Shown here: positions 7,761 through 22,954 of the stretch, one piece after another
How positions within the stretch are numbered: the first letter of the stretch is position 1
Layout of the letters: each line of letters starts with the position of its first letter
Assembly (NCBI GenBank): GCA_964536865.1
Contig: CAZHYN010000001.1
Coordinates: 120,001-152,000 of the forward strand
Origin: an uncultured Planctomycetia bacterium
GTDB taxonomy: Bacteria; Omnitrophota; Gorgyraeia; Duberdicusellales; 4484-171
Length of the DNA stretch: 32,000 nt
Direction of reading: 5' to 3'
The notes under the pieces: generated by a model
Told to the model about the DNA's origin: nothing
Seen by the model: the letters and a program-made list of their open reading frames with translations, nothing else
The model's database searches: none
Position numbers and translations under genes: made by a program

Positions 7761-7802
7761 ATTTAGTGAACAATGGAAGCTTGAGGGAAGGAAGATAGGA
7801 AA

Positions 7803-8516
7803 ATGAAAAATAAATCAAAACAACGTAAAGTTTATGAGAAAGCAATAAAAAATTGGCCAAAGGACGAACGTCCCAGAGAGAAGCTTTTTAAATTAGGAGA
7901 ACACAAACTTTCCAATACAGAACTTTTAGCTATTTTGCTTCGCAGTGGTATAAAGGGAGAAAGTGCTGTTGACCTGGCAAGAAGAATCATTCAAAAATTC
8001 AGAACTTTCAGAAATATGAGCCATACAGATATAAGAGACTGGAAAGAATTTAAAGGTTTAGGTCAGGCAAAAATAGCCCAGATTAAAGCAGCAATTGAAA
8101 TAGGAAGAAGATTTAGAGAAGAGGAAATAAAAGAAAAACCTCCTCAGATAAAATCCTCCTGTGATGTTGTAGAAATTATGATGCCAAGAATGAGAGACTT
8201 AAAGAAAGAAGTATTTAAAATACTCCTTCTAAATTCCAAAAACAGGATTCTTGATATTGTAGAAATAACTCAGGGCACAGTAAACCAGGCAAACCCCATA
8301 ATAAGAGAAATATTTGAAAAATCTTTACAATCCTATGCTTCATCCATCATCTGCGTCCACAACCATCCTTCCGGAGATCCTAAACCCAGCAAAGAAGACG
8401 AAGAATTCACTAAAAGCTTAACTAAAGCAGGAGAAATTCTAAACATAAAAGTATTGGACCATATCATAATAGGAGATGATGAATACTATAGTTTTGCTGA
8501 TGAAGGGACGATATAA
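7803..8516 (+). CDS. radC: RadC-family JAB/MPN domain protein, copy 1
   Basis: ERPREKL, ELLAILLRSG, and the JAB metal motif HNHPSGDPKPSKED. Confidence 0.9.
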   Translation: MKNKSKQRKVYEKAIKNWPKDERPREKLFKLGEHKLSNTELLAILLRSGIKGESAVDLARRIIQKFRTFRNMSHTDIRDWKEFKGLGQAKIAQIKAAIEIGRRFREEEIKEKPPQIKSSCDVVEIMMPRMRDLKKEVFKILLLNSKNRILDIVEITQGTVNQANPIIREIFEKSLQSYASSIICVHNHPSGDPKPSKEDEEFTKSLTKAGEILNIKVLDHIIIGDDEYYSFADEGTI

Positions 8517-8813
8517 TTATTTAGATTGAAGAGGTATAATAAGGAAAAATTTTTTAAGAGTTAGAAGGCCAATTTATTGAGAAAATTTGCTAAAGATATG
8601 GTTTTTATAAATGATTTAAGAGGAAAGTTAGAATATAAAAAATAAAAGAGAGGCATTACCGCGGGACTAACCCCTTTGGATAGCCTCTCATCGTGATTCA
8701 ACTTAAGTATATAACATAACCTTATGAATATCAAGGAGGTTTGTGAATTTTTATAGATTTGCTTAGAAATTTAACCAAAGAAATCATCGTAGCCATAGAA
8801 AATCAAGAATGAT

Positions 8814-10208
8814 ATGACCAAGAAAGAACTAAATATAATTTTAAAAGAAGGTGAAGGATACAAGATTGAATTTAAAGAGAAGGTAAGTAATATCGAGAAG
8901 GAGTTGGTAGCATTTGCCAATTCCTCTGGTGGCAGGATACTGCTTGGGGTAACCGACGATGGTAAGATTAAGGGAATAAATGTAACCAATAGACTGAAAT
9001 CTATGATTCAAGATATAGCGAATAATTGCCGTCCGCCAATTAAGATTTCTTTTGAAAGCATAGGTAACGTTCTTGCGGTTAATGTAAAAGAAGGAGAAGA
9101 TAAACCCTATGAATGCACTTCTGGTTTTTACAAAAGAATGGGGCCAAATTCTCAGAAAATGACAAGAAACGAACTAATTAGATTCTTTAAAGCAGAGGGA
9201 AAAATCAGGTTTGACGAACTTATAGAGCCAAAGTTTAGTTATCCTAAAGATTTTGACAAAGGGAAATTTAAAAGATTCTTGCAATTGGCCGATATCTCCA
9301 GAGTGGGAAGTGCAGAAAAATTACTTGTTAGTTTAGGGGTGGCTGAGAAACAGGAAGGCAGACTCTACTTTAATAATGCCGGTATACTTTTCTTTGCTAA
9401 AGAACCACAGAGGTTTATTCCCTGGTCAGTGTATACTGTGGCATTATTTAAAGATGAAGCAGGAGTTGATATTATAGACAGAAAAGAGATAACTGGCAGT
9501 TTATTTGAGATTGTAGAGGAGGTAATGAAATTTGTAAGGCTTTATACAAAAGTTGCCTACCGTTTTACCGGCAGACCTCGCAGAGAAAATGTATATGAAT
9601 ACGCTTTTGATGCAATCAGGGAGGCAGTAATAAATTCAGTAATGCATAAATATTACTTTGAACATGGACACAACAATATCTTGAGATTCTTCCCTGACCG
9701 AATAAGGATTGAGAACTACTGGCAAAAGCCTGGCCATTTTGTTCTTGGCAAAACTGTCTTTAGAAGAAACCATATTATCGCTGATTTGTTTTCCAAAATT
9801 CATTTCGGCGAGAAAATGGGTACAGGTTTTGAGAGAATAAGACAAATATGTAAAAAAGAAAAAGCCCCTTATCCTGATATTGAGTTTACCGAAAATTACT
9901 TCTATATAACTTTCAAGCAGAGCTATGAATACTTAAAACTTGCTGGGAAGCGTCCTCCTAAAGAAGGGTCTTTAACTACTACCCAGAAACAGAAAACTGT
10001 GGAGAAAACTGTGGAGAAAACTGTGGAGAAGATTCTGCATTTGATTAAAGAAAATCCCAAAATAACAATGAGAGAAATAGAACGGGTAACCGGTTTAAGC
10101 AGACGAGGCGTTGAATGGAATATTGCCAAACTCAAAAAAGAAGGTCAAATCAAACGCATTGGTCCTGATAGAGGCGGGTATTGGCAAATTGTGGCAGAGA
10201 AAAAATAA
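8814..10208 (+). CDS. AlbA_2 (Schlafen-like) DNA-binding domain + RecG-C-like ATPase-fold domain + wHTH protein
   Basis: EGEGYKIEFKEK...ELVAFANSSGGRILLGVTDDGKIKG (AlbA_2 pattern); AIREAVINSVMH...GTGFERI; C-terminal wHTH (ITMREIERVTGLSRRGVEWNIAKLKKEGQIKRIG). Confidence 0.8.
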   Translation: MTKKELNIILKEGEGYKIEFKEKVSNIEKELVAFANSSGGRILLGVTDDGKIKGINVTNRLKSMIQDIANNCRPPIKISFESIGNVLAVNVKEGEDKPYECTSGFYKRMGPNSQKMTRNELIRFFKAEGKIRFDELIEPKFSYPKDFDKGKFKRFLQLADISRVGSAEKLLVSLGVAEKQEGRLYFNNAGILFFAKEPQRFIPWSVYTVALFKDEAGVDIIDRKEITGSLFEIVEEVMKFVRLYTKVAYRFTGRPRRENVYEYAFDAIREAVINSVMHKYYFEHGHNNILRFFPDRIRIENYWQKPGHFVLGKTVFRRNHIIADLFSKIHFGEKMGTGFERIRQICKKEKAPYPDIEFTENYFYITFKQSYEYLKLAGKRPPKEGSLTTTQKQKTVEKTVEKTVEKILHLIKENPKITMREIERVTGLSRRGVEWNIAKLKKEGQIKRIGPDRGGYWQIVAEKK

Positions 10209-10408
10209 TGAGCAGGCAAGTTTTATCCGATATAATTAAAGAATTCTCTCCCACTGTAGAAGAAATAGCCCAAGCCCTTAAACTTCATCCTTACACCATT
10301 CGCAGGCTTTGCCGTGAAGGTGAAATCCCAGCTTTTTCCGCCATACTTTATGGCGGATCCGCCTCTGGCGAAAAATTTGGCGCTTCCGTTTTGATGTTAA
10401 GGAGATAG
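10208..10408 (+). pseudogene. excisionase/MerR-type HTH gene, disrupted
   Basis: The ATG at 10208 overlaps the upstream stop (TAATG). TVEEIAQALKLHPYTIRRLCREGEIPAF is followed by element E4. The expected tail (KIWRFRFDVKEIEE) continues in a different frame, which is the radC copy 2 frame. Confidence 0.5.
10338..10371 (+). repeat. two-hairpin junction element, copy E4
   Basis: CCGCCATA-CTT-TATGGCGG (perfect 8-bp stem), then ATCCGCC-TCT-GGCGA. Confidence 0.65.
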
Positions 10409-10413
10409 AAGAA

Positions 10414-11130
10414 GTGGAAAAGAAATCAAGGCACTACAAAGTTTATGAGAAAGCAATAAAGAACTGGCCTGAAGATGAACGTCCCAGAGAGAAGCTTTTT
10501 AAATTAGGAGAACACAAACTTTCCAATACTGAACTTTTAGCTATCTTACTCCGTAGTGGTATAAAAGGAGAAAGTGCAATTGACTTGGCAAGGAGAATCA
10601 TTCAAAAATTCAAAACCTTCAGGAATATGAGTCATACCAATTTAAATGATTGGAAAGAATTTAAAGGTTTAGGTCAGGCAAAAATAGCCCAGATTAAAGC
10701 AGCAATTGAAATAGGAAGAAGATTTAGAGAAGAGGAAATAAAAGAAAAACCTCCTCAGATAAAATCCTCCTGTGATGTTGTAGAAATTATGATGCCAAGA
10801 ATGAGAGACTTAAAGAAAGAAGTATTTAAAATACTCCTTCTAAATTCCAAAAACAGGATTCTTGATATTGTAGAAATAACTCAGGGCACAGTAAACCAGG
10901 CAAACCCCATAATAAGAGAAATATTTGAAAAATCTTTACAATCCTATGCTTCATCCATCATCTGCGTCCACAACCATCCTTCCGGAGATCCTAAACCCAG
11001 CAAAGAAGACGAAGAATTCACTAAAAGCTTAACTAAAGCAGGAGAAATTCTAAACATAAAAGTATTGGACCATATCATAATAGGAGATAATAAATATTAC
11101 AGTTTTGCTGATGAGGGAAAAATAAGGTGA
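10414..11130 (+). CDS. radC: RadC-family JAB/MPN domain protein, copy 2
   Basis: Same motifs as copy 1, with a GTG start. Bases 10651-11088 are identical to 8040-8477. Confidence 0.9.
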   Translation: MEKKSRHYKVYEKAIKNWPEDERPREKLFKLGEHKLSNTELLAILLRSGIKGESAIDLARRIIQKFKTFRNMSHTNLNDWKEFKGLGQAKIAQIKAAIEIGRRFREEEIKEKPPQIKSSCDVVEIMMPRMRDLKKEVFKILLLNSKNRILDIVEITQGTVNQANPIIREIFEKSLQSYASSIICVHNHPSGDPKPSKEDEEFTKSLTKAGEILNIKVLDHIIIGDNKYYSFADEGKIR

Positions 11131-11139
11131 GGCAAAATA

Positions 11140-11232
11140 ATGAGAGAAAAAGATATCAATTTTGAAGAAAAACTCTGGAAGGCAGCAGATAGAGAAAATA
11201 TTATAAAAACTTTCCCAAAATTCAACGAATAA
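11140..11232 (+). pseudogene. N-terminal fragment of a type I methyltransferase (hsdM) gene
   Basis: MREKDINFEEKLWKAAD... matches the conserved HsdM N-terminus (FEEKLWKAADKLRG) for about 17 aa, then diverges and stops. Confidence 0.5.
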
Positions 11233-11375
11233 CCCTAACCAAAACCGACCAACACACAATTCGCTTCCTCAAAATCTTAACCCAGGTAACCCGTGCCATT
11301 AAAGGTGGTATCTTTTACCCCAGCAAATCTTTTTATTGTAATGTATGCGGGTATAGGGAATTGTGCAGGAAGTGA
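11232..11375 (+). pseudogene. C-terminal remnant of a Cas4/RecB-like PD-(D/E)XK nuclease gene
   Basis: ...LTQVTRAIKGGIFYPSKSFYCNVCGYRELCRK*. Tail motif C-x2-C-x5-C. Paralogous to 2990-3107. Confidence 0.45.
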
Positions 11376-11403
11376 TAAATCTAATTAAATTTTAATTTTT
11401 CTC

Positions 11404-11436
11404 TTGACAATAATAAAATAACTTATAAAATAAGTT
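11404..11436 (+). promoter_or_regulatory. hsdM promoter with overlapping perfect palindrome
   Basis: TTGACA (11404-11409), 16-nt spacer, TAAAAT. AACTTAT-AAA-ATAAGTT (11420-11436) overlaps the -10, and a third half site AACTTATA lies at 11447. Confidence 0.45.
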
Positions 11437-11470
11437 TTAAAGAAAAAACTTATAGAAATGGAGGTACACG

Positions 11471-13258
11471 ATGATGCCCAATTGGCTTAATAGAAGATAT
11501 GAAATTTTATGGGGAGCATTTCAATCTTCTCCTTTCTGTGTCGAAGATGCTACACGCGTGCTTAAAGAAAAATTTGATGATAGTGAGGAACAGATTAATG
11601 TTGTACTCTCGGAACTAAGAAAAGAAGGTATGCTTAAAGTAGAATTTGATCCCACTGACGCAAGGAAAAGAGTCTATCAACTTATAAGTAGAGAGCAAAT
11701 AATTTCTGAGAGATTCTCCATTACAAATAAGCAATTAACAAGAGGAGATCTTGAAGGGCTTCTCAAGGCAGCAGCAGATCTCATAAGAACAAGGGTCGAT
11801 TATACTTTTATCCTCGTTCTTCTTTTCTACAAAAGAATTAGTGACAAATGGAAGATGGAATTTGAGAATGCATATAAAGAAGCACTTGCTGATGGATTGA
11901 GTGAAGAAGAAGCAAAGAAGGAGGCAAGAAATGCCATATATCATGACTTTGATATTCCTGAGGAGTTTCTCTGGGAGAATATAAGGAAGGAACCAACCAG
12001 ATTACCTGAAAATTTTTCCAAAGCAATGAAAGTTTTGGCAGAAAGGAACTCCGGACTTAAGGATGTATTTGAGAATGTAGATTTTGTTCAATTTACCACC
12101 AATAGAGAAAATGCTGAAGTTTTAAGACAATTAGTTGAACTTTTCAGTGCTAAAGCGTTACACCATGTATCCCCTGATATTCTTGGAGATGCTTACGAGT
12201 GGATATTAAGGTACTTTGCCCCTCAGAAAGCTAAGGAAGGAGAAGTCTACACTCCAAAAGAGGTTATCAATCTCATTATTGAAATGGTCGATCCAAAACC
12301 AGGTGAAAGTGTATATGACCCAGCCTGTGGTTCGGGTGGTATGCTTATCAGCGCTTATAAGCATGTTGAAAATAATCTTGGCAGGAACGAAGCAGATAAG
12401 CTCTTTCTCTTTGGGCAGGAATACAATCACAAGACTCTTGCTCTTGCTAAAATGAATCTTTACATCCATGATATCAGGAATGGTCAGCTTGCTCTGGGAG
12501 ACACATTGCTTTATCCCAAATTTAAGGAAGGTAACCTGCCTGCGTCCGCAGGACAGTCAGGTAAGTTAAAGAAATTCGATGTTGTTATAGCCAATCCCCC
12601 GTGGAATCAAGATGGATATAGTGAGGAGACTCTTAAAAAAGGTGAGTTCTGGCGGGAGAGATTCAACTTCGGGTTCACACCAAAACAATCAGCAGACTGG
12701 GCATGGATAGAGCACATGTTAGCTTCAGCAAAGGAGAGAGGTGGCAGAGTGGGGGTTGTTATAGATAATGGTTGCCTTTTTAGAGGCGGGAAGGAGAAGG
12801 CGATAAGAACAAGTATCGTCAATGCTGACCTGATAGAGGCTGTTATTCTTCTCCCTGAAAAACTCTTTTATAATACTGGAGCACCAGGAGCAGTAATTGT
12901 TCTTAATAAAAATAAACCAAAGGCAAGGAAAGGAAAAGTCTTATTCATAAATGCAAGCAATGAATACGAGCAACATCCAAGTGTTCGGAAACTCAACCGT
13001 TTGGGAGATGAGCATATAGAGAAGATAGTCAAAGCATATAAAGAGTTTAGAGACTCAGGTGGATTTTCAAAGGTTGTAGAGATTGAGAAGATAAAAGAGA
13101 ACGGCTATAACCTGAATGTCACGCTATATGTATTCCCGGAAGAGGAGATTGAGGAGATAGATGTAACTAAAGAGTGGGAAGGACTGCGTAAGGTAGAAAG
13201 GGAACTTGTGGAGGTTGAAAAGAAGATTGAGGGATATCTAAAAGAATTAAAATACTGA
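11471..13258 (+). CDS. hsdM: type I restriction-modification methyltransferase subunit M with extra N-terminal wHTH-like domain
   Basis: HsdM_N pattern (LKAAADLIR...LVLLFYKRISD), motif I DPACGSGGML, motif IV NPPW (VIANPPWNQ). About 90 extra N-terminal residues precede HsdM_N. Confidence 0.95.
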   Translation: MMPNWLNRRYEILWGAFQSSPFCVEDATRVLKEKFDDSEEQINVVLSELRKEGMLKVEFDPTDARKRVYQLISREQIISERFSITNKQLTRGDLEGLLKAAADLIRTRVDYTFILVLLFYKRISDKWKMEFENAYKEALADGLSEEEAKKEARNAIYHDFDIPEEFLWENIRKEPTRLPENFSKAMKVLAERNSGLKDVFENVDFVQFTTNRENAEVLRQLVELFSAKALHHVSPDILGDAYEWILRYFAPQKAKEGEVYTPKEVINLIIEMVDPKPGESVYDPACGSGGMLISAYKHVENNLGRNEADKLFLFGQEYNHKTLALAKMNLYIHDIRNGQLALGDTLLYPKFKEGNLPASAGQSGKLKKFDVVIANPPWNQDGYSEETLKKGEFWRERFNFGFTPKQSADWAWIEHMLASAKERGGRVGVVIDNGCLFRGGKEKAIRTSIVNADLIEAVILLPEKLFYNTGAPGAVIVLNKNKPKARKGKVLFINASNEYEQHPSVRKLNRLGDEHIEKIVKAYKEFRDSGGFSKVVEIEKIKENGYNLNVTLYVFPEEEIEEIDVTKEWEGLRKVERELVEVEKKIEGYLKELKY

Positions 13259-13266
13259 TCAATGAC

Positions 13267-14799
13267 ATGCAAACTAATACTTTAAAAGAAATAATCAATA
13301 AATGGAGAGGTAAAGAAGGAGAACGTATTGAATATAAACTCTCTGCTTCTACTTTATCAAAAGACATATGGGAAACCGTATCTGCTTTTTCAAACGAAGG
13401 CGGCGGTGTAATTCTACTTGGGTATAAAAAAATCGGTAAGAAATATGTTCCCGTAGGAGTTAAAGATCCCTCAAAAATTCTTGATGATTTTACTTCTACT
13501 GTTAGTCAAAAATTCAATTTTTGTCCTGTTGTCTCTGCAAAGATTGTTGAAGACAGTGGTAAACCCACAATAGTTATAGAAGTAAAAGAAGCTCCACGGT
13601 ATCAAAAGCCCATTTATATAAAAGATGCAGGTCCTCTTAAAGGAGGATTTAAAAGGGTTGGTGCTACAGACATTAGGCTTACAGACGAGGATGTGTATAG
13701 ATATTATCTGGAAAGAATGGGAGCTCCTGATGCTCAACCAATAAATGGAACTACATTAGATGATATTGATCCTGCTACTCTTACAGCGTTTCGGAACTTA
13801 AGGAGAATTATAAATCCCAATGCTCCGGAATTAAGGTTTGATGATAAAGAACTTCTAAAGGCATACAACTTACTATCCAAAGACTCCGAAACATTAACAA
13901 CTGCGGGCTTACTTCTTTTTGGAAGAGAAGAGATAGTGAAAAGACATTTTCCAGCGGTTCGGCTTGATGTCATAAGGGTAAAAGGTATCGAATGGGGCAA
14001 AGACAGAGACCCCTTTCTCTCCAGAGATTTAACAGGAAATCTCATAACTCTGCGTTCATTAGCGATAGATTTTCTGGATAGGTTCTTCCTTGTTCCTTTC
14101 CATACGGATAAAAGAGGTGAGAGGATAGAAGAAAATGCTCATCGCAAAGCCCTGAGAGAAGCACTTACCAATCTTTTAATGCACCAGAACTATTTTCACC
14201 GCAGTCCTGCACAGATAAGAATTTATAACGATAGGATTGAATTTTATAACCCTGGCTATTCTTTGAAGGATCCATCTTTATTTGATTCTCCTGGTTCTGA
14301 GTTAAGGAATCCTTCAATTGCGGCGGTTTTTTATGATATTGGTTGGGCAGAGGCGAAAGGGACAGGGCTTAAAACCACTATTGAATCACTTAAGAGTGAG
14401 GGTTACCCTATCCCTGAGTATTTAAATGACATCAAACATGACACTTTTACTTTGGTGCTTCCCCATCCAATAGTAGAAGTCACCGAACAAGTCACCGAAC
14501 AAGTCACCGAACAAGTTGCGAACATGATGGACCGGAGGGCTATGACTCTGGAATTCTGTAAGGAGCCGAGGTCTTTAAAAGAAATAATGCAGTTTCTTGG
14601 GCTTAAACACCGACCCAATTTTATAGAAAAGGTGTTGAATCCTCTTCTTGAAGCAGGGTTGTTAAAAAGAACGATCCCAGACAGGCCAAGAAGCAGGTTT
14701 CAAAAATATGTGGCTGTGAAGAAGGAGGCACATTATGGCAAAAAACAAGCACGATCAAATAGCAGAGAGGTTGGCAAAGAAGTTTGGGGTGGAGTATAA
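13267..14799 (+). CDS. AlbA_2 (Schlafen-like) domain + RecG-C-like ATPase-fold domain + wHTH protein
   Basis: EGERIEYKLS...ETVSAFSNEGGGVILLGY (AlbA_2 pattern); ALREALTNLLMHQNY...GTGLKT; C-terminal wHTH (RSLKEIMQFLGLKHRPNFIEKVLNPLLEAGLLKR). Starts 8 nt after the hsdM stop. Confidence 0.8.
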   Translation: MQTNTLKEIINKWRGKEGERIEYKLSASTLSKDIWETVSAFSNEGGGVILLGYKKIGKKYVPVGVKDPSKILDDFTSTVSQKFNFCPVVSAKIVEDSGKPTIVIEVKEAPRYQKPIYIKDAGPLKGGFKRVGATDIRLTDEDVYRYYLERMGAPDAQPINGTTLDDIDPATLTAFRNLRRIINPNAPELRFDDKELLKAYNLLSKDSETLTTAGLLLFGREEIVKRHFPAVRLDVIRVKGIEWGKDRDPFLSRDLTGNLITLRSLAIDFLDRFFLVPFHTDKRGERIEENAHRKALREALTNLLMHQNYFHRSPAQIRIYNDRIEFYNPGYSLKDPSLFDSPGSELRNPSIAAVFYDIGWAEAKGTGLKTTIESLKSEGYPIPEYLNDIKHDTFTLVLPHPIVEVTEQVTEQVTEQVANMMDRRAMTLEFCKEPRSLKEIMQFLGLKHRPNFIEKVLNPLLEAGLLKRTIPDRPRSRFQKYVAVKKEAHYGKKQARSNSREVGKEVWGGV

Positions 14800-15031
14800 G
14801 AAAAGTAAAGGTATTGATATTGTAACCAAAGAGAAAGTTATCGAAGTTGAAACTAAGAAAGGTTCTTTATACCAAGGAATAAATCAGATAAAAAGAGCTT
14901 CTAAAGCAAGGTATGTTGCAGTTAATAAATTAAATATTAACAATGCTTTAAAGGCTACGAAAGGAACCGGTATAGGAATTATGGGACCTACTGGAAGGAT
15001 AATAAAGAGAGCGAGAAGAAATAAGAAATAA
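14735..15031 (+). CDS. small basic protein with minimal PD-(D/E)xK-like motif
   Basis: Strong GAAGGAGG RBS 5 nt upstream of the ATG. GIDIV-(x7)-IEVETKK fits a D...E-x-K nuclease signature. Overlaps the upstream ORF by 65 nt. Function unverified. Confidence 0.45.
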   Translation: MAKNKHDQIAERLAKKFGVEYKKSKGIDIVTKEKVIEVETKKGSLYQGINQIKRASKARYVAVNKLNINNALKATKGTGIGIMGPTGRIIKRARRNKK

Positions 15032-15033
15032 AA

Positions 15034-16854
15034 TTGCTGGGGCACATGTGGGAAGATAAAGTTTTAAAAGTTGCTTTTTCTATTCATTCAAATCCTGGCA
15101 TATATGCATTGTTGTTGGGTTCTGGAACATCAAGAGAAGCAGGTATTCCTACAGGATGGGAAATAGTAGGAGATTTAATTAAAAAACTTGCCTTTGTTCA
15201 GACCAAAGAGTCATTATCAGATCCCTATAAATGGTATGAAGAAAAATTTGGAGAGAAACCAGATTATTCAAAAATTTTAGAAAAGTTAGCAAGTACTCCT
15301 ATAGAGAGGCAGTCGCTTTTAAGAAGATATTTTGAGCCTACAGAGGAAGAAAAAGAACAAAGAATTAAAATCCCTACAGATACTCATAGGAGTATAGCTA
15401 AATTAGTTAAATATGGATATGTGAAGGTTATTGTCACTACTAATTTTGATCGTTTATTAGAGAAAGCCTTAGGAGAAAAAGGAATAACACCAGTTGTTAT
15501 CAGTACCGATGATGAATTAGAAGGAGCTATTCCTTATGTTCATTCCAATTGCACTTTGATAAAAGTTAATGGAGATTATTTAGATACACGTTTAAGAAAT
15601 ACGATGGGTGAATTGGAAACCTATTCAGAGAAATTGACTTCATTGCTCGAAGAAATTTTTGAAAGATTTGGATTAATTGTGTGTGGATGGTCGGCGAAAT
15701 GGGATATTGCTTTAAGAGATACCATTTTAAGAATAAAAAATAGAAGATTCCCTATGTATTGGCTTTCTAAAGAAGAGGTTACAGAGGAAGCGAAAAGGGT
15801 TATTTCACATAGGCAGGCAGATGTTATAAATATCGAAAGTGCCGATAAGTTTTTTGTTGAACTTTTAGAGAAGATCGAATCTTTACGAGAGTTCGAAAGC
15901 CCACATCCTTTATCTTACAAAGAGGCTGCTATAACTGTTAAACGTTATTTGTCAGATGAAAAGAAAAATAGGATTAAGCTTTATGAGCTTATCGATGAAG
16001 AAACAGAAAAAGTATGGAAAATTTTAGCTTCAGAATATTTTAATATTCAAAAGTTAAAACTTGAACGTAGTTTGATTCAGAAAAGAATACATGAGTATGA
16101 AGAATTGGTAAAACCCCTTATGAATATGCTAATGCCCATTGCTTATTTTAGCAAGGAAGAAGATAATATGCGCTTGATTTCCAGAGCAATAGAACGAATC
16201 GCGCAACCGCATCAGCGAGCTGGCGTTGTAGCATTGATACAATTTCAACATTACCCTGCTTTACTTTTGCTATATGCAGCTGGTCTTGTAAGTTTAGCTA
16301 ATGAAAATTGGAAGGTTTTAAAAGCAGCTTTATTGGAACCACAATATCAAGCTGATAATGAGAAACAACCAATTTTAGAATATATCGAGCCATATTATAT
16401 TTTAAGAAGATTAGGATTTAATAATAATGCAAAAAATAGAATTCTATCTGAAAATGACTATTTATTTTTTCTATTATCTGATTTTGTTAACGAATATATA
16501 CCTGACAAAAATAAATATGAAGAAATATTTGATATTTTTGAATTTTTAATGGCAGTAACTTATGTTTATCAAGTAGTTTTTGTCTATGGGAGTGAAGAAG
16601 ATAAGAAAACATTTAAAGAATCTGAGTATTTACCTACTAAGTTGATTGTTGGACGATTTGCACGGAAATACTTTAGTTGGCATCCCTCTAGAGATTTTGA
16701 AAAGTCTCCAATTGCTAGATTTATAAACGAGGGGATAAAACAAGGTAATGAATGGGGGTTATTGAAAGAAGGATTCTTCGGAGGCTTTATAGAAACGTTT
16801 AAATTGTGCTGTAAAAAATATATAAACACCTTGAGAAAGGTAAGAATCTCTTAA
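15034..16854 (+). CDS. SIR2-like (SIR2_2 type) N-domain protein with uncharacterised ~320-aa C-terminal region
   Basis: LLLGSGTSREAGIPTGWEIVGDL (GAG-S...G-P-W pattern), VIVTTNFDRLLEKAL (TTNYD pattern), LIKVNGDY (position of the KLHG motif). TTG 15034 lies 2 nt after the upstream stop; ATG 15046 is an alternative. Confidence 0.65.
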   Translation: MLGHMWEDKVLKVAFSIHSNPGIYALLLGSGTSREAGIPTGWEIVGDLIKKLAFVQTKESLSDPYKWYEEKFGEKPDYSKILEKLASTPIERQSLLRRYFEPTEEEKEQRIKIPTDTHRSIAKLVKYGYVKVIVTTNFDRLLEKALGEKGITPVVISTDDELEGAIPYVHSNCTLIKVNGDYLDTRLRNTMGELETYSEKLTSLLEEIFERFGLIVCGWSAKWDIALRDTILRIKNRRFPMYWLSKEEVTEEAKRVISHRQADVINIESADKFFVELLEKIESLREFESPHPLSYKEAAITVKRYLSDEKKNRIKLYELIDEETEKVWKILASEYFNIQKLKLERSLIQKRIHEYEELVKPLMNMLMPIAYFSKEEDNMRLISRAIERIAQPHQRAGVVALIQFQHYPALLLLYAAGLVSLANENWKVLKAALLEPQYQADNEKQPILEYIEPYYILRRLGFNNNAKNRILSENDYLFFLLSDFVNEYIPDKNKYEEIFDIFEFLMAVTYVYQVVFVYGSEEDKKTFKESEYLPTKLIVGRFARKYFSWHPSRDFEKSPIARFINEGIKQGNEWGLLKEGFFGGFIETFKLCCKKYINTLRKVRIS

Positions 16855-16857
16855 GTT

Positions 16858-18177
16858 ATGGGAGAAGAATTTAAACAAACAGAGATTGGTAAGATACCGA
16901 AGGAGTGGGAGGTGGTGAGGTTGGGGGAGGTGGTATCAGTATTGAGAAATGGGCTAACTACTAAGCAAAATAAAGAAAAGATAGGTTATCCAGTTACCAG
17001 AATTGAGACGATTTCGGACGAGACAATTGATCAAAGTAAGTTTGGGTATCTAACAAGAGTAAGCGAAAAAGAAATCAAAGAGTATGGGTTGGTTAAAGAC
17101 GACATATTGTTCAGCCACATAAATAGCTTAGCGCACATAGGAAAGACAGCAATCTACAGAGGAATTCCTAGAACTCTGTTGCATGGGATGAATCTGTTAC
17201 TCCTGCGACCAAATAAGCAGAAAGTTAATCCGGTGTTTTTCCTGATGCTATTAAGATTTCTCAGAATGAAGAAGATTTTTGCAAACATGTCTAAAAAAGC
17301 TGTAAATCAAGCCTCGATCAATCAAACAGAACTTAAGAAACTAAAACTACCCCTCCCTCCACTTCCAGAACAACAAAAAATCGCTGAGATTCTTTCAACT
17401 ATGGATGAAGCTATTGAAAAAGTAGATTCTGCCATAGCAAGAACCGAACGGCTCAAAAAGGGCTTGATGCAGGAACTTCTGAATGGGAGTCTGAGAGTCG
17501 GAGAGTCAATGAGTCTAAGAGTCAGAGAGTTAGGAGAGTTTAAGGATACAGAAATCGGCAGGATACCGAAGGAGTGGGAGGTTGTGAGGTTAAAGGAAGT
17601 AGTAGATTTGCTTAGAAATGGTTTAGTTACAAAGCAAAACAAGGATGAAAAAGGTATACCTGTAACACGCATAGAAACGATTTCAGACGAGAGAATTGAT
17701 ACGCAAAAAATTGGCTATATTGAGAAAATATCAGAAGAGGAAATTTCAGAGTACAAACTTCAAAAAGGAGATATACTTTTCAGCCATATCAATAGTCTTG
17801 CACATATAGGAAAAACAGCAATATATGATGGCGAACCTTCCTTATTGCTACACGGAATGAACCTGCTCCTTTTGAGACCACAGAGAACAACCATTGAGCC
17901 TTTTTACCTTTTATATTTATTAAAGTATTACAGAGCCAAGGCAATTTTCAGACACATGTCGAAAAAGGCAGTTAATCAAGCATCGATTAACCAGACAGAA
18001 TTAGGTAGGCTTAGAATTCCATTTCCCCCTCTCCCAGAACAACAAAAAATTGCTGAAATCCTGTCAACTGTTGATAAAAGGCTGGAGCTATTGAGAGAGA
18101 AAAAAGAAAAATTGGAAAGAATAAAGAAAGGATTAATGAATGACCTGCTAACAGGGAAAAAGAGAGTAGTGTTATGA
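16858..18177 (+). CDS. hsdS: type I restriction-modification specificity subunit S
   Basis: Two target-recognition halves, each ending in the conserved LP-LPEQQKIAEILST helix. Starts 3 nt after the SIR2-like stop. Confidence 0.95.
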   Translation: MGEEFKQTEIGKIPKEWEVVRLGEVVSVLRNGLTTKQNKEKIGYPVTRIETISDETIDQSKFGYLTRVSEKEIKEYGLVKDDILFSHINSLAHIGKTAIYRGIPRTLLHGMNLLLLRPNKQKVNPVFFLMLLRFLRMKKIFANMSKKAVNQASINQTELKKLKLPLPPLPEQQKIAEILSTMDEAIEKVDSAIARTERLKKGLMQELLNGSLRVGESMSLRVRELGEFKDTEIGRIPKEWEVVRLKEVVDLLRNGLVTKQNKDEKGIPVTRIETISDERIDTQKIGYIEKISEEEISEYKLQKGDILFSHINSLAHIGKTAIYDGEPSLLLHGMNLLLLRPQRTTIEPFYLLYLLKYYRAKAIFRHMSKKAVNQASINQTELGRLRIPFPPLPEQQKIAEILSTVDKRLELLREKKEKLERIKKGLMNDLLTGKKRVVL

Positions 18178-18556
18178 GTAGACGGCATACAGTAAACAGT
18201 AGACAGGGAAAGGCAGAGAGATTTGAGCAGTTAGAAGTATGGAAAAAGGCACATGAGTTGGTTCTTAAAATAACAAAATTACAAAAGATTTTCCTTCAGA
18301 GGAAAAATTTGGATTAGTTTCACAAATGCGACGTGCTGCTGTATCAATCCCTGCTAATATCGCTGAGGGATTTAAAAAGTATGGCTTAAAAGATAAGAGG
18401 AACTTTTATAACATAGCACAAGGCTCTCTTGAGGAATTAAGATACTATTTAATTTTATCAAAGGAACTTGGATATTGTGAAAATACAGATGAATTTTATA
18501 AAGCAATAGATACAATTGGGAAAATGTTATATGGCCTTATTAAAAGTATACAGTAG
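18174..18556 (+). pseudogene. four-helix-bundle protein (23S rRNA IVS-protein family), frameshifted
   Basis: The N-terminal part (ATG 18174, ...EQLEVWKKAHELVLKI) and the body (DFPSEEKFGLVSQMRRAAVSIPANIAEG..., listed ORF 18326..18556) lie in different frames. The shift falls in the A-rich run near 18265-18285. Flanked by a perfect 15-bp inverted repeat (18192-18206 / 18623-18637). Confidence 0.7.
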
Positions 18557-18658
18557 GCAGTCTACAGCAAACAGGGAATTCGTTGTCAAACAATCTCCCT
18601 GCAGTCTACTGTCTACCGTCTACTGTCTACTGTTTACAAACTCAAAGGAGCACCAAAG

Positions 18659-21600
18659 ATGGCCTTTGATGAAAAACGCCTTGTAGAAGACTATATTATT
18701 AAACAACTTGAAGAGAAAGGATGGAGGTTTGTCCCTGCTAATGCCCTTGAAAGGGACAGCTATGAAGAACCTTTACTTATTCCAAATCTCAGAAGGGCGT
18801 TGGAAAGGATAAATAAAGAATCTGGTATTGGGGATGAGGAAATAAACAAGGCTTTAAATGAACTTAAACTTACCGGTACAGGTATAGAGGGAGCTAAACG
18901 CATTCTTAACTTCTATAAGTTTGGTATTCCAGTGAAGTTTGAGAAAGAGAAAGTGGTAAAGTATATCCAGCTTTTTGATTTTCAAGACATTGAAAACAAC
19001 GAATTCATAGTTTCAAGGCAGGTTTATTTTTATGGTAGGGAAGCCATAAGAACGGACATTATACTCTATGTAAACGGTATTCCTCTGGTAAATATCGAGT
19101 GTAAAAACCCGACAAGTTTGACTGAAAGCTGGCATACCGCTTACAGGCAGATTAAGGATTATGAAAGGCTTGTACCCGAGCTTTATAAATATATTCAGAT
19201 AGGAATAGGAGCTGAGAGTATTGCAAGATATTTCCCCATCGTTCCTTGGCAAGATGAACCTGTGATACACGAATGGCGTGATGAAAAGAAGGATTCAATT
19301 GACTCTACGGTTGAGATGCTATCAAGAAATATCTTGCTTGATATTATTAAAAACTACCTCTTTTATAGAGAATGGAGAGGGGAAGCAACTAAGGTCATAA
19401 CCAGATATATGCAGTATAGAGCTGCTAATAAGATGGTAGATAGGGTCATCAAAAATCTCAAAGGGGAGGAGAAGAAAAATAAAGGCCTTGTATGGCATTG
19501 GCAGGGAAGCGGAAAGACTCTTACCATGCTCTTTGCTGCCAACAAACTTTATTACGCAAAGGAACTCGAGAATCCCACGATATTTTTTATTGTCGATAGG
19601 ATTGAGCTCGAAGACCAGCTTTACAAGGAATTCTATTCTTTAGATATTGTCAAACCGGAGATTATAGGTTCAGTGGATGAACTCAAGGGAATTCTTCAAT
19701 TTGATGATTATCGGGGTAAGCGAGGAGTATTTATAACACTCATTCATAAATTCAGGCCTGAGGAACTTAAAGAACTTTATAAAGAACTCGATGAAGTCAC
19801 AAGATATAAGGAAACAATTATGAACAGAAAAAATGTTATAGCCTTCATTGATGAGGGTCATAGAACCCAATATGGGCTGTTGGCTGCTCAAATGAAGAGT
19901 ATTCTTAAAAGTGCTTTTTTCTTTGCCCTTACTGGAACACCTATATCAAAAAAGGGTAGAGATACCTACCTGGAATTTAGCTATCCACCAGACGAGGTTT
20001 ATCTTGATAGGTATTTCATAACAGATTCCATAAGAGATGGCTTTACAGTAAAGATTGCCTATCAGCCAAGGCTTGAGAAAGAAGTCCATCTGAGGAAAGA
20101 TTTACTTAAAGCATTTTTAGAGGCAGAAGAGGAAGAACTGCCTGAGGAGATAAGAGATGATATAAAAGGCAGAATTAAAAAGAGGTTGAATGCTATAAAG
20201 GTAGTGCTTGAAAATCCACAGCGTATAAAGGTAATAGCAGAGGATATAGCAAAACATTTTAAGGAGCATATTGACGGGAAGTTTAAAGCCATGGTGGTAG
20301 CAGGTAGTAGAAAGGCCTGCCATATCTATAAACAAGAACTTGATAGACACCTGCCACCAGAATATTCAGAGATAGTGATGACATATAGAAGAGACGATGA
20401 ACAGCCCCTTGTGAAGAGGATTGCAGAGACACGAGAAAGATATGGAAATAGAGATATATCTGATATAAGAAAGGATATAGTAGAGAAGTTTAAAGAAGAA
20501 GCATTCCCTAAAATACTTATTGTCACTGATATGCTTCTTACAGGATTTGATGCTCCTATTTTGCAAGTTATGTATCTTGATAAACTACTTAAAGAACATA
20601 GACTTCTCCAAGCAGTGGCGAGGACGAATAGACCATATAAAGATTTAAAAGAAGGAGGCCTTATAATTGATTATGTAGGAATACTCAAGGAATTTAGGAA
20701 AGCCCTTGAGATGTATAATGAAGAGGATATTAGACTGGCACTTACAAGCTTCGACGGGATCAGGGAAGAATTTGCCTTACTCCTCAGAGAGATTCTTGAA
20801 ATACTTAAAGAAGTATCCAGAAATTATGAGAGGGAAGTACTCCTTAAAGCTTGTGAAATACTCACCACTGAGAAGACAAAAGAAAAGGAATTCATTGAGA
20901 AATATAAAAGTTTAAGAAAGGCCTTTGAGCTCCTTGGTCCTGACGAAATTAAACTTGAATATTTCGAAGATTATAAATGGATTTCAGCGATTTATACATA
21001 CTACATGAGAACAGTACTACAGAAACCACCTGTTGAAGAATATGTAGAGAGGTATTACGAGAAAACTGTAAGATTCATACATAAGGCTACAGAGATAAAA
21101 AAGTTGGAAACAGACCTGCCAATAGTAGCTTTTGACGAAGGATACCTTAAGGCGCTTGAGGAGAGGGTTAAAAGCAGGAAGGAGAAAGCTGCTAACATTC
21201 TTTTTACACTAAATAGATTAGTTCTCGTTGAAAGACACAGAAACCCTATTTATGAGTCTCTCGTAGAAAAAGTTGAAAGACTGCTTGAGCTCTGGAAGGA
21301 GAAAACAAAGGATTATGAAAGGATATACAGAGAAGGTGTAATAGCAATCAATGAAATAAAGTCTCTTTCTGAAAGACAAAAATCATTGGGCTTTTCTGAC
21401 CTTGAATATTCGCTACTGCTTGCTCTTGAAGAAAAATTTGGTAAAGAGGAAGAATTGGTAAGTGAGGTAAGAGATATATCAGAAAGGCTTAAAAACTATA
21501 TGTTTCCTGGTTGGTTTAATCAGCCTACCGTAGAAAAAAATGTAGAAAGAGAAGTAAGGAGATTTGTTAGGGGATTTAAGGGAAAGTATAGCATGACTTT

Positions 21601-21664
21601 GGAAGAAATGGACCAACTTTATAAGAAACTTATTGAAAGAGTAAAGAACTATGGGACTTCATAA
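18659..21664 (+). CDS. hsdR: type I restriction enzyme R subunit
   Basis: N-terminal PD-(D/E)xK (DIILYVNGIPLVNIECK), Walker A WQGSGKTLTM, DEAH-type box FIDEGHRTQ, motif VI QAVARTNR. Confidence 0.95.
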   Translation: MAFDEKRLVEDYIIKQLEEKGWRFVPANALERDSYEEPLLIPNLRRALERINKESGIGDEEINKALNELKLTGTGIEGAKRILNFYKFGIPVKFEKEKVVKYIQLFDFQDIENNEFIVSRQVYFYGREAIRTDIILYVNGIPLVNIECKNPTSLTESWHTAYRQIKDYERLVPELYKYIQIGIGAESIARYFPIVPWQDEPVIHEWRDEKKDSIDSTVEMLSRNILLDIIKNYLFYREWRGEATKVITRYMQYRAANKMVDRVIKNLKGEEKKNKGLVWHWQGSGKTLTMLFAANKLYYAKELENPTIFFIVDRIELEDQLYKEFYSLDIVKPEIIGSVDELKGILQFDDYRGKRGVFITLIHKFRPEELKELYKELDEVTRYKETIMNRKNVIAFIDEGHRTQYGLLAAQMKSILKSAFFFALTGTPISKKGRDTYLEFSYPPDEVYLDRYFITDSIRDGFTVKIAYQPRLEKEVHLRKDLLKAFLEAEEEELPEEIRDDIKGRIKKRLNAIKVVLENPQRIKVIAEDIAKHFKEHIDGKFKAMVVAGSRKACHIYKQELDRHLPPEYSEIVMTYRRDDEQPLVKRIAETRERYGNRDISDIRKDIVEKFKEEAFPKILIVTDMLLTGFDAPILQVMYLDKLLKEHRLLQAVARTNRPYKDLKEGGLIIDYVGILKEFRKALEMYNEEDIRLALTSFDGIREEFALLLREILEILKEVSRNYEREVLLKACEILTTEKTKEKEFIEKYKSLRKAFELLGPDEIKLEYFEDYKWISAIYTYYMRTVLQKPPVEEYVERYYEKTVRFIHKATEIKKLETDLPIVAFDEGYLKALEERVKSRKEKAANILFTLNRLVLVERHRNPIYESLVEKVERLLELWKEKTKDYERIYREGVIAINEIKSLSERQKSLGFSDLEYSLLLALEEKFGKEEELVSEVRDISERLKNYMFPGWFNQPTVEKNVEREVRRFVRGFKGKYSMTLEEMDQLYKKLIERVKNYGTS

Positions 21665-22199
21665 TATCCCATATATAGTTTCCTATAGAGCTGTGAAGTA
21701 TCCAAGATTAGAGTTTAAAACAGGAAAGCTTCTTATTGTTCTTCCTTTTGGAGCTAAGCCTGATATTCTTTTGGATAAGCATAAACATTGGATTATTAAG
21801 AAATCTGAATTTATAAAAAGATGCTTACAAAGTGCAAAGAATAAAAAATTAATCACAAGATCCGATGAAAAATTTAGGAAACTTATCGATTATTTTGTGA
21901 GAAAAACATCTAAAGATTTAAATGTTAAATTGAATCGCATCTATTTTAGAAAAATGAAGACAAAATGGGCATCCTTGAGTTCTGCGAAAAATCTAACAAT
22001 TAACTCACTTGTGAAACATTTGCCAGAGTATTTGATAAGATATGTGATTTTCCATGAACTGGTTCATATCATAGAGAAAAGACATAATGAGAAATTCTGG
22101 GAGATAGTCTCACACAGGTTTAAAAATTATCGAAAAATGGAAAGAGAAATGTTCATATATTGGTTTCTGGTTTCTAAAAAAGGAGGAGATCATGGCTGA
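21651..22199 (+). CDS. YgjP-like (DUF45/M48-type) metal-dependent hydrolase
   Basis: HExxH motif in VIFHELVHIIEKRHNEKFW. Overlaps the hsdR stop by 14 nt. Confidence 0.75.
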   Translation: MGLHNIPYIVSYRAVKYPRLEFKTGKLLIVLPFGAKPDILLDKHKHWIIKKSEFIKRCLQSAKNKKLITRSDEKFRKLIDYFVRKTSKDLNVKLNRIYFRKMKTKWASLSSAKNLTINSLVKHLPEYLIRYVIFHELVHIIEKRHNEKFWEIVSHRFKNYRKMEREMFIYWFLVSKKGGDHG

Positions 22200-22482
22200 A
22201 TTCACAGTTAGTGAAGTAATTGATGGTGATACTTTTAAAGTTAAGGAAGGTTGGAAATGGAATGAAAGGAAGGGCGATACTGTTCGTCCTACAGGTTATG
22301 ATGCTCCTGAGAAAGGAGAGCCGGGATATGAAGAAGCAAAAGAGAAACTTAGAAGGCTAATTTTGAATGAAAAAGTAAAAATTGAAAATCCTCAAACCAT
22401 AGATGACTGGGGCAGATTAGTGGCAGATGTTTATTATAAAGGGAAAAATCTTGCTGACTACTTTCCTGAATATAAAGTTTGA
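22192..22482 (+). CDS. short thermonuclease (SNase-like) family protein
   Basis: VIDGDTFKV...TVRPTGYDAPEKGEPGYEEAKE resembles the SNase DGDT...R..GIDAPE core. At 96 aa it is shorter than canonical SNases. Overlaps the upstream stop by 8 nt; AGGAGG RBS. Confidence 0.65.
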   Translation: MAEFTVSEVIDGDTFKVKEGWKWNERKGDTVRPTGYDAPEKGEPGYEEAKEKLRRLILNEKVKIENPQTIDDWGRLVADVYYKGKNLADYFPEYKV

Positions 22483-22584
22483 TAAGTTTTCTTTTCGTCC
22501 TGAGTTTTCTTGAGATACAGGCGGTGAGGATACGTCTTTTAAATATTTTGTTATACCCTTAAAATCTTTAAAATATTGGAATAT

Positions 22585-22700
22585 TTAATCACTTCCCATT
22601 TTCTCCCCCCACACCTCCTCAAACTCTCCTGAACCACGTAGGGTCTTAAGGGGATGCCCTATGTTCTTTTTTATCCACTTCCTCATTTTTCCTCATCCCA
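22585..22700 (-). pseudogene. decayed paralog of the 3' end of the gene at 24317..24619
   Basis: The minus strand reads ...KNEEVDKKEH... and ...GEFEEVWGEKMGSD* in two frames, versus KNKEVDKSAYREFERVWEEMKY* in the intact gene. DNA similarity is visible (TCCCACAC.C.CTCAAACTC, TTATCCACTTCCT). Confidence 0.35.
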
Positions 22701-22748
22701 ATACAAGCCTTCCTGACCGACACCCTTCTCAAAATTTGACATTTTTCT

Positions 22749-22925
22749 CATTCTCAAATTCTTAAGAATATTAGAATAATTTCTGCCTCCACATTGGAAT
22801 AGTTTCTGTCTCCATTTTATTTTTAGTCTTTCCCTTTACCATTCTCAAATTCTTAAGAACGTTGGAATAATCCCCAATCTTCATACCTACTTTCTCATTC
22901 TCAAATTCTTAAGAATATTGGAATA
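22749..22925. repeat. upstream cluster of the 30-bp palindromic repeat (R1-R3)
   Basis: CATTCTCAAATTCTTAAGAAYRTTRGAATA at 22749-22778, 22840-22869 and 22896-22925. Partial copies lie near 22561-22586 and 22790-22802. The core is a 28-bp imperfect palindrome centred on ATTCTT|AAGAAT. R3 contains the -35 (TTGGAA 22918-22923) of a TGn-TATAAT promoter (22938-22946). Confidence 0.85.
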
Positions 22926-22954
22926 TTTTAATGAATGTGATATAATTTAAGAAG

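Follow-up and report, generated by a model that had tools for sequence, protein, structure and literature searches.

The embedding of defence genes in operons for type I restriction-modification (R-M) is already known, and a locus from an uncultured Planctomycetia bacterium (Omnitrophota in GTDB) raises the question of whether genes embedded in this way form one system or several. In a stretch of 32,000 nucleotides (nt) from contig CAZHYN010000001.1 (assembly GCA_964536865.1, positions 120,001 to 152,000; hereafter the window), the map of open reading frames (ORFs) places three genes, here called g1, g2 and g3, between hsdM and hsdS. All five genes lie on the + strand in this order, with junctions of 8 nt (hsdM/g1), a 65-nt overlap (g1/g2), 2 nt (g2/g3) and 3 nt (g3/hsdS). 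The product of g1 combines Schlafen (AlbA_2), GHKL ATPase and winged helix-turn-helix (wHTH) domains, g2 encodes a small basic protein and g3 a protein with an N-terminal SIR2 domain. An earlier note on this DNA, made from its letters alone, had given the same gene order and gaps, which our coordinates reproduce exactly; it had taken the trio for a single second-line module that is co-transcribed with the R-M genes, matches no known system and fires when restriction is blocked. The analysis reported here points elsewhere, and we consider it fairly probable that the three genes are independent, separately mobile guests of one type I R-M operon and not parts of a single machine.

The three genes do not recur as a unit

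Surveys of 80 loci each, many of them from short contigs, covered the neighbourhoods of g3 and g2 homologs; the window's own proteins served as tblastn queries for neighbouring genes, so that very divergent homologs can be missed. No g2 homolog was found beside g3 in any of the 80 g3 loci, and no g3 homolog beside g2 in any of the 80 g2 loci. A protein with an AlbA_2 domain lay near g3 in about three of 80 loci (L014, L009, where it is a fragment, and L082, where it is distant), while g1 and g2 were adjacent in 6 of the 80 g2 loci. Other copies of the complete trio came only from near-identical contigs of the same organism. The idea of a single module had been made to depend on co-occurrence of the three genes elsewhere, and it finds no backing in these counts.

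The nearest relatives of the operon, with hsdM 65-90% identical to that of the window, share the arrangement hsdM-(g1 or ORF6N/PDC-S05)-g2-X-hsdS, in which the gene at position X varies. This position is held by the SIR2 gene g3 in the window, by a KAP NTPase gene in L134, by PDC-S19 (DUF3644) in L088 and L153, by a PD-Lambda-4_A-like gene in L087 and L143, by DUF6119 in L090 and L118, by DUF4145 in L084 and L085, and by the gene for an unknown protein of 329 amino acids (aa) in L109 and L098. An AriA-like ATPase gene occupies the same position between g2 and hsdS in L117, whose contig does not include hsdM. The operon of a WOR-3 bacterium (L014; JAGMEL010000080.1, 1-15000), with hsdM 67% and hsdR 62% identical to those of the window, carries seven guests including a g3 homolog. 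Its 5' part consists of hsdM, ORF6N, a gene for a 494-aa HATPase_c_4-HTH protein with a different N-terminus, an ORF of 280 aa, the g3 homolog (with histidine at the catalytic site discussed below) and hsdS; then come three ORFs, of 264, 215 and 462 aa, the longest of which has an AlbA_2-like part at its C-terminus, and finally hsdR and YgjP. No g2 was found in this operon by tblastn with the window proteins. The hsdM-hsdS-hsdR operon of this lineage may thus serve as a landing pad for independent defence-type genes, which would be driven from the hsdM promoter and be inherited and horizontally transferred with the R-M system.

g3 matches a catalogued single-gene defence candidate

The PADLOC model of the single-gene candidate PDC-S65 (PDLC05061) matches g3 with 645 bits (E 3.2e-194), residues 4-601 falling on model positions 11-587 of 592, and a second PADLOC model, PDLC05060, matches at E 3e-119; judged by these profiles, g3 is a full-length member of PDC-S65. 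The likely start of the gene is ATG 15046, which is its start in public gene calls (602 aa, the numbering used here) and makes the g2/g3 gap 14 nt. The PDC models go back to genes that lie inside BREX, DISARM or type I R-M loci ("guilt-by-embedding"), and the 145 PDCs are all predictions, none of them tested by their authors (Payne et al., 2024, bioRxiv 10.1101/2024.01.29.577857). The inserted genes had been put forward as defence candidates from their position; genes placed in this way are indeed good candidates, and g3 was already listed as one by this same logic of embedding. A full-text literature search for "PDC-S65" returned no paper, and within the portions searched of the supplementary tables of Payne et al. 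the name was not found and its cassette and family identifier were not traced. The family comprises more than 3800 homologs, the best matches being mostly of ~580-610 aa, and g3 homologs are present in 499 GTDB species genomes of bacteria and archaea as well as on about a dozen IMG/VR contigs. The window protein shares with PDC-S65 an end-to-end hidden Markov model match, the length class, the embedding in R-M loci and the lack of a conserved partner gene, and shows no difference in kind; it carries asparagine at the position of the canonical catalytic histidine, as do ~15-20% of the family.

In its genomic habit g3 is a stand-alone gene that clearly favours type I R-M loci, although most of its copies lie outside them. 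Recurrent neighbours within 3 kb, counted over 80 genomes, were HsdS (13), HsdR (9), HsdM (8) and an integrase (4), and no others; no Argonaute, ThsB or HerA gene was found near g3, either in the window operon or among the recurrent neighbours in the 80 loci. Genes of the hsd type were present within 10 kb at ~19 of 80 loci, and hsd genes, the only neighbours that g3 shares across genomes, accompany it in 16-24% of loci; members embedded in R-M loci include those of the window and of L004, L011, L014, L015, L040, L047, L053, L058 and L067. Within 10 kb, some three quarters of the g3 homologs lack any hsd gene, and the proposal that the module fires in the manner of PrrC when restriction is blocked is without support for g3. 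The EcoprrI locus with PrrC resembles this one in that a guest gene lies within an operon for type I R-M, and g1, if it is a tRNase, would act on the same kind of target. PrrC, however, is almost exclusively embedded in hsd loci whereas g3 is mostly found alone, and none of the three proteins is matched by a PADLOC model of PrrC or RloC. A PrrC-like dependence on Hsd proteins is therefore not supported for g3; g1 and g2 are more closely linked to methyltransferase or R-M genes.

An AlphaFold2 (AF2) model of g3, with a predicted local distance difference test score (pLDDT) of 86.5, consists of an N-terminal SIR2 domain (residues ~1-282) and an all-helical C-terminal domain (~290-602), in agreement with the earlier description of an N-terminal SIR2_2-type domain followed by a helical, unrecognisable half. 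Three lines of evidence agree on the N-terminal domain: Pfam SIR2_2 scores 37.5 bits (cut-off 24.5), a PDB profile search finds the SIR2-APAZ protein of SPARSA (8in8/8jkz; E 4e-14, residues 23-258), and Foldseek with the model finds SPARSA, DSR2, ThsA and KomC at E values of 1e-6 to 4e-10, with SPARSA 8y80_E at 4e-10. According to the model the SIR2 domain has a SPARSA/DSR2-like fold. The C-terminal domain bears invariant residues of its own in the alignment of homologs, and no sequence or fold relative of it was detectable, the Foldseek search having been made with the whole protein and being dominated by the SIR2 part.

Comparison with characterized SIR2 systems indicates where these likenesses end. 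The SIR2-APAZ protein of SPARSA has the closest solved SIR2 domain by profile and fold, is similar in length (~580 aa) and carries the TTNFD and K-x-H-G-D motifs; unlike it, g3 has no APAZ region, the PADLOC Aga_SIR2 and pAgo matches covering residues 13-293 only, and neither the window nor the set of recurrent neighbours includes an Argonaute gene. DSR2, like g3, is a single polypeptide with an N-terminal SIR2 domain and an all-helical C-terminal region (Foldseek E ~1e-7 to 3e-8), and it offers the best mechanistic analogy, its C-terminal domain sensing a phage protein and its SIR2 domain depleting NAD+. It differs in length (~1000 aa against ~600 aa, 602 in g3) and in having the catalytic H171 where g3 has asparagine. 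Superposition over the full length gives a root-mean-square deviation of ~17-22 Å and a template modelling (TM) score of ~0.35, so that only the SIR2 part of g3 truly matches DSR2; the related NCBIfam model, which covers Dsr1 only, scores 16.4 bits against a cut-off of 1400. Models of Thoeris ThsA match residues ~112-183 only (E 5e-5 to 1e-4), g3 lacks the C-terminal SLOG/STALD domain of ThsA, and there is no ThsB in the operon.

g1 belongs by its domains to a common Schlafen-ATPase class

The three domains that had been proposed for g1 all score above curated Pfam cut-offs, SLFN_AlbA_2 with 45.9 bits (cut-off 25.3), HATPase_c_4 with 54.5 (26) and the Fic-like_C wHTH with 59.4 (27), and the SLFN-pAgo-type PADLOC model PDLC02394 matches residues 28-332. 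The Ex4ExK motif, read from the translation, is intact (E17-G-E-R-I-E22-Y-K24). On this domain evidence g1 is a Schlatpase-HTH protein, also termed pSlfn-HisKinase-HTH (AlbA_2, PF13749 GHKL and a C-terminal HTH), of a very common R-M-associated family. With g3 assigned to PDC-S65 and g1 to this class, the earlier claim that this architecture is unlike any known system no longer holds. The Schlatpase supra-domain is found in ~59% of ~103,000 prokaryotic Schlafen proteins, the pSlfn-HisKinase-HTH class makes up 19.2% of pSlfns, R-M-associated Schlafen-ATPase-DNA-binding proteins are a recognised cluster (Cluster 7 of the Cash paper), and Ex4(E/D)xK is essential in SLFN11, RorSlfn5 and CbCash (bioRxiv 10.64898/2026.05.29.728809; PMC13056530; PMC13462974). 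g1 has the domains, the Ex4(E/D)xK motif and the R-M association of its class; unlike the active Schlafen systems it is without an Ago, Csx15 or Ig-like sensor. Schlafen fusions with Ig-like, Csx15 and Ago parts are known to act as tRNases and in defence, and the fusion with DUF262 is known to act in defence; neither activity is known for the plain Schlatpase-HTH class. In the data of Payne et al. (bioRxiv 10.1101/2024.01.29.577857), the g1 family appears as FAM_00002 among the families embedded in R-M, BREX and DISARM loci, with eggNOG category K (transcription), and cassettes with FAM_00002 are rejected there as non-defence. Judged from SLFN-pAgo, Cash and pSlfn5, g1 is probably an ATP-gated Schlafen RNase: the GHKL domain, driven by ATP, would oligomerise and so assemble the Ex4ExK RNase for tRNA cleavage, and the wHTH would tie the protein to DNA.

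The window contains a second Schlatpase-HTH paralog (8814-10208), in which Ex4ExK is also intact. In the linker between GHKL and wHTH, g1 has three copies of TEQV (14482-14517) and the paralog three copies of KTVE (9993-10031), in both cases from 12-nt tandem repeats.

g2 belongs to a small conserved family, typically behind methyltransferase genes

The ribosome-binding site of g2 is strong, as had been remarked, with AGGAGG 7 nt 5' of the ATG. Gene callers chose an 80-aa form; the N-terminus of the 98-aa form is kept in homologs, with H6 and D7 invariant, and we therefore regard the longer form and the g1/g2 overlap as real and the public call as too short. The 65-nt overlap is specific to this lineage and goes back to loss of the g1 stop codon: in relatives a TAA stands 5 nt before the g2 ATG (L134, 6160-6175, reads ...GAGATAAAGTCATG), where the window (14728-14799) reads GAGGCACATTATG, so that g1 reads through into g2 and gains a tail of 23 aa (23 codons).

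Exhaustive HMMER searching of 1.84 billion representative sequences found only 186 clusters of the g2 family, most of the full-length ones stand-alone proteins of ~95-100 aa, with two rare fusions, HTH_3-Peptidase_M78-g2 and g2-PRTase-CE. Homologs from many phyla, among them Atribacteria, WOR-3, Omnitrophica, Parcubacteria and Acidobacteriota, share 65-90% identity. Profile scans assigned g2 to no Pfam, PADLOC or NCBIfam family, a PDB profile search returned nothing and PHROGs nothing meaningful, and a scan of IMG/VR viral contigs found no copy. The AF2 model (pLDDT 89.9) has a topology compatible with an alpha-beta-beta-beta-alpha-beta core. UPF0102/YraN (4 of 34 members), MmcB-like proteins (TM 0.63, E 0.011), YaeQ (TM 0.53, E 0.29) and SfsA are weakly similar, all of them pointing to minimal PD-(D/E)xK proteins and none at E <= 0.001. 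Residues D28, E37 and E39 are invariant in 34 sequences, the lysine alternates between positions 41 and 42, and it is absent in the distant members P0360 and P0291. From the model, a minimal PD-(D/E)xK-like fold is probable; of the nuclease-like character ascribed to g2 earlier, the invariant acidic residues and a compatible fold stand, while the fold matches are all weak and the lysine is not fixed. YraN/UPF0102, MmcB and YaeQ resemble g2 in size, in the core of the AF2 model and in the G-I-D...E-V-E-x-K pattern. The matches to them are nevertheless statistically weak, the g2 lysine position is not fixed and g2 forms its own family, with a distinctive habit of lying after methyltransferase genes and before variable defence genes.

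This habit is apparent from the 80 metagenomic g2 loci, in which 17 of 59 upstream neighbours are DNA methyltransferases (11 N6_N4_Mtase and 6 N6_Mtase) and a further 5 are ORF6N and 4 g1-like genes, of the kinds that follow hsdM. The 74 downstream neighbours are diverse and defence-like, among them 7 ThsB-type TIR, 5 Clp-protease-like and 4 DUF4145 genes, together with DUF3644/PDC-S19, DUF6119, AriA-like ATPase, KAP NTPase, PD-Lambda-4_A-like, PIF1 and zeta toxin genes. The gene after g2 usually begins within 5-40 nt, and no conserved recombination or operator DNA motif was seen after the g2 stop. In 11 loci, among them L103-L106, L119, L132 and L141, g2 begins a few nt before the end of a type II-like N6_N4 methyltransferase gene, an overlap that points to coupled translation; differing cargo follows, in what looks like a recurrent methyltransferase-g2-X design outside type I systems.

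In our reading g2 would be a mini nuclease-fold protein that travels with methyltransferase genes and lies directly 5' of whichever cargo fills the variable slot. The most likely candidates for its role are DNA binding or regulation linked to the methyltransferase, or that of a small nuclease. We also considered g2 as the classical restriction endonuclease of the upstream methyltransferase and rejected this as unlikely, since the same 65-90% identical g2 follows varied methyltransferase families and HsdS specificities, and a near-invariant g2 would not fit an enzyme of set cleavage specificity against which cognate methylation protects. A bolder proposal, to which we give only a small chance, is that g2 represents an unrecognised nuclease-fold class behind DNA methyltransferase genes (HsdM, type II N4/N6 and type IIG-like) at the upstream edge of a swappable cargo slot. 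It might act there as a generic coupler of methyltransferase or restriction status, or of DNA state, to the downstream effector (SIR2, TIR, Clp-like, KAP or OLD/AriA-like), or might promote the exchange of cargo.

Independent guests or one machine

If the three genes are independent guests, g3 probably works as a miniature DSR, on the precedent of DSR2 and of further effectors with a SIR2 domain: a cue of infection would be sensed by the helical C-terminal domain, which would free the SIR2 domain to consume NAD+ or ADP-ribosylate a target and so stop the infected cell. The motifs of the domain are GSG, TTN133FD, H166 and VN175GDY. In an alignment with GsSir2, TTN133FD falls on the catalytic N142 and V-N175-G-D-Y on K-I-H186-G-D-F; N133 is invariant in 38 of 38 sequences and aligns with TTN142FD of 8jkz. 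Several points weigh against reading the locus as a set of independent defence guests. The canonical SIR2 catalytic histidine (GsSir2 H186, DSR2 H171, KomC H146) is asparagine in g3 (N175, window 15568-15570), the same histidine is altered in the catalytically dead structures that PDB entries name DSR2(H171A) and KomC(H146N), and, because the exchange of histidine for asparagine inactivates KomC, NADase activity of the window protein is uncertain, which weakens the step proposed above. Two HisKinase-type pSlfn genes, each expressed alone in E. coli, gave no protection. The functions of PDC-S65, of the plain Schlatpase-HTH class and of g2 are predictions from sequence. Finally, the genes are tightly spaced and g1 and g2 recur side by side (6 of 80 g2 loci), which leaves room for functional coupling of neighbours.

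The assignment of g3 as an NAD-depleting effector accordingly stands in part, with the SIR2 fold and the catalytic N133 present and the canonical histidine replaced. Position 175 is histidine in 31 and asparagine in 7 of 38 aligned relatives; asparagine was found in 17 of 118 close homologs and at 17 of 80 species loci, across bacteria and archaea, and no third residue occurred. We read the asparagine as a tolerated functional variant and not as decay, because it recurs in a phylogenetically scattered pattern, the other invariant residues (GSG, TTNFD, H166, GDY) are kept and the ORF is of full length; the chemistry, nonetheless, cannot be assumed. A link between the asparagine variant and hsd embedding was looked for and rejected, hsd genes being nearby in 2 of 17 loci with asparagine and in 17 of 63 with histidine. 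That the window protein is not an NADase at all, whether as an inactive, decaying guest, through other chemistry or by binding NAD+ only, would explain why N175 stands in for the histidine of the K-[LI]-H-G-D motif, the very residue mutated in the dead DSR2 and KomC structures. The scattered recurrence of asparagine, the restriction of the site to two residues and the intact remainder of the protein make this quite unlikely in our view.

The alternatives for the locus as a whole differ in how closely they bind the genes to each other and to the Hsd proteins. A single second-line system of sensor or regulator (g1), mini-nuclease (g2) and SIR2 effector (g3), wired to Hsd and firing like PrrC when restriction is blocked, would account for the tight co-oriented spacing, the probable co-transcription and the defence-type folds of all three genes, and has a precedent in PrrC-EcoprrI. 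It is very improbable given that the trio is confined to near-identical contigs of one organism, that g2 and g3 are never adjacent elsewhere in either survey and AlbA_2 is near g3 in only ~3 of 80 loci, that the nearest operon relatives carry unrelated genes in place of g3, and that about three quarters of g3 homologs lack a nearby hsd gene. A narrower coupling, in which g2 is the constant partner of a two-gene design, a regulator, adaptor or immunity protein for the downstream effector that perhaps reads methyltransferase or restriction status, fits the conservation of g2 across phyla next to a highly variable, defence-like downstream gene, the short distance to that gene, the upstream neighbours (17 of 59 DNA methyltransferases and 9 g1 or ORF6N genes that follow hsdM) and the rare fusions of the g2 domain to the PRTase-CE effector or to HTH_3-Peptidase_M78. 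We nevertheless hold it to be unlikely: none of the 80 g3 loci has g2, PDC-S19, PDC-S05 and PDC-S65 are modelled as single-gene candidates, so that these effectors can do without g2, the DNA after the g2 stop shows no conserved motif, and translation of g2 is often coupled to that of the methyltransferase gene before it, g2 then having no promoter region of its own.

It is also conceivable, if on balance rather unlikely, that g3 is the sole defence effector, with g1 as a COG2865-type transcription regulator and g2 as a small DNA-binding protein, both accessories of the R-M operon without killing activity. The C-terminal wHTH of g1 and the eggNOG category K of its family agree with this, as do the conservation of hsdM-g1-g2 in related operons, the failure of HisKinase-pSlfn genes alone to give defence, and the putative ExK lysine of g2, which shifts between 41 and 42 and is lost in distant members. 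On the other side, g1 and the paralog at 8814-10208 both retain the full Ex4ExK motif that is essential in SLFN11, RorSlfn5 and CbCash, which argues for a retained nuclease function. Some related operons, moreover, are without g1 (having ORF6N instead) or without g2 (L014), and since these members of the operon family do without one or the other, neither gene appears to be needed by the R-M system. Gene order, family assignments, the lack of co-occurrence and the exchange of cargo are observed directly, while co-transcription, every biochemical activity and defence itself are inferences. Independent guests in a shared operon remain the explanation that we favour.

Operon layout and the surrounding island

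The features of the operon are listed in Table 1. Co-transcription, which had been stated as a necessity, is plausible: a promoter-like site lies just 5' of hsdM and a sequence scan found no + strand terminator-like site from 10900 to 22600, from which we infer a single transcript from hsdM through the inserted genes. It is borne out that a type I R-M operon houses the three genes. The GC content is 0.32-0.33 for g2 and g3 and 0.38-0.39 for hsdM, g1 and hsdS. A YgjP-like gene follows hsdR also in the related operons L014, L109 and L144. The 23S_rRNA_IVP-type gene covers positions 35-106 of the 106 in its model and may be N-terminally truncated or mis-started.

Table 1. Features of the type I R-M operon and its inserted genes in the window.
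Feature	Coordinates	Strand	Evidence
Putative operon promoter, TTGACA-16-TAAAAT	11404..11431	+	Best sigma-70-like match, 11/12, consensus match only, ~40 nt 5' of hsdM
hsdM, type I R-M methyltransferase, 595 aa	11471..13258	+	Pfam N6_Mtase E 2e-115, HsdM_N; PADLOC MTase_I E 1e-105
g1, Schlafen(AlbA_2)-GHKL ATPase-wHTH, 510 aa	13267..14799	+	Pfam domains; PADLOC PDLC02394
g2, 98-aa basic protein	14735..15031	+	ORF; homolog alignment; AF2 model
g3, PDC-S65 protein, 606 aa from TTG / 602 aa from ATG 15046	15034..16854	+	PADLOC PDLC05061
hsdS, specificity subunit, two target-recognition domains	16858..18177	+	Pfam Methylase_S E 5e-58; PADLOC Specificity_I
23S_rRNA_IVP-type small four-helix-bundle gene, further guest between hsdS and hsdR	18326..18556	+	Pfam E 1e-22
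hsdR, restriction/translocase subunit, 1001 aa	18659..21664	+	NCBIfam hsdR 697 bits; Pfam HSDR_N, SWI2_SNF2, T1R_D3-like
YgjP-like metallopeptidase, overlaps hsdR stop	21651..22199	+	Pfam E 5e-25

Upstream of the operon, the Schlatpase-HTH paralog is flanked by two RadC genes (7803-8516 and 10414-11130; whole region 7801-11130), the first 300 nt of which are direct repeats 88% identical to each other, giving the appearance of a duplicated module. A third HATPase_c_4 (GHKL) protein of 370 aa (6551-7663) has no detectable AlbA_2 domain, so that the window holds three GHKL-type genes within 9 kb. The stretches 1582-2812 and 4412-5584 hold an HTH_3 and SocA/Panacea antitoxin-type gene with an overlapping ORF of 145 aa after it, likely a PanA-type toxin-antitoxin pair, and a gene for a Fic-domain protein; from these genes the R-M operon appears to lie within a wider defence and toxin-antitoxin island. 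The last 20 nt (715-734) of tRNA-Gln(CTG) (660-734) are repeated exactly at 1045-1064, 330 nt downstream, as an att-like scar. This scar suggests that the region downstream of it is a hotspot of integration or an island, although the window showed no integrase.

Further repeated elements occur in the window. A palindromic element of 25 nt, GGCGGATCCGCCTCTGGCGAAAAAT, occurs four times (2990-3014, 4260-4284, 10352-10376 and 24423-24447), and intergenic blocks recur with 85-92% identity (4160-4290/10252-10382, 3018-3076/11307-11365 and 5626-5664/10374-10412). These blocks sit at module boundaries, one of them just 5' of the hsdM promoter, and may represent junctions or terminators within a modular island; a 75-aa HTH_17 ORF (10181-10408) that overlaps one of them may not be a real gene. 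Just 3' of the R-M operon, seven copies of a ~39-nt repeat with the palindrome-bearing core TTCTCAAATTCTTAAGAATATTGGAATA (22549-23370) flank a small HTH_5/ArsR-like gene (22955-23245) and resemble operator or iteron sites. A cobalamin riboswitch (25281-25494, 107 bits) lies directly 5' of the gene for NrdD, the anaerobic ribonucleotide reductase (25542-27707), which is followed by that for its radical-SAM activase (27704-28336), marking the return to housekeeping genes past the island.

Implications

The locus provides a clean example of type I R-M operons as carriers of independent defence genes. Together with its relatives it forms a natural series with the same scaffold and different cargo, suited to testing whether embedding gives more than co-inheritance and co-expression. 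The analysis also brings to light the g2 family, which is small, strongly conserved and unannotated and has a striking genomic habit. For PDC-S65, the toggle between histidine and asparagine at the very residue used for making dead mutants matters for the prediction of NADases from sequence; if it is true that these sirtuins tolerate asparagine in place of the "essential" catalytic histidine, this would imply a histidine-independent chemistry.

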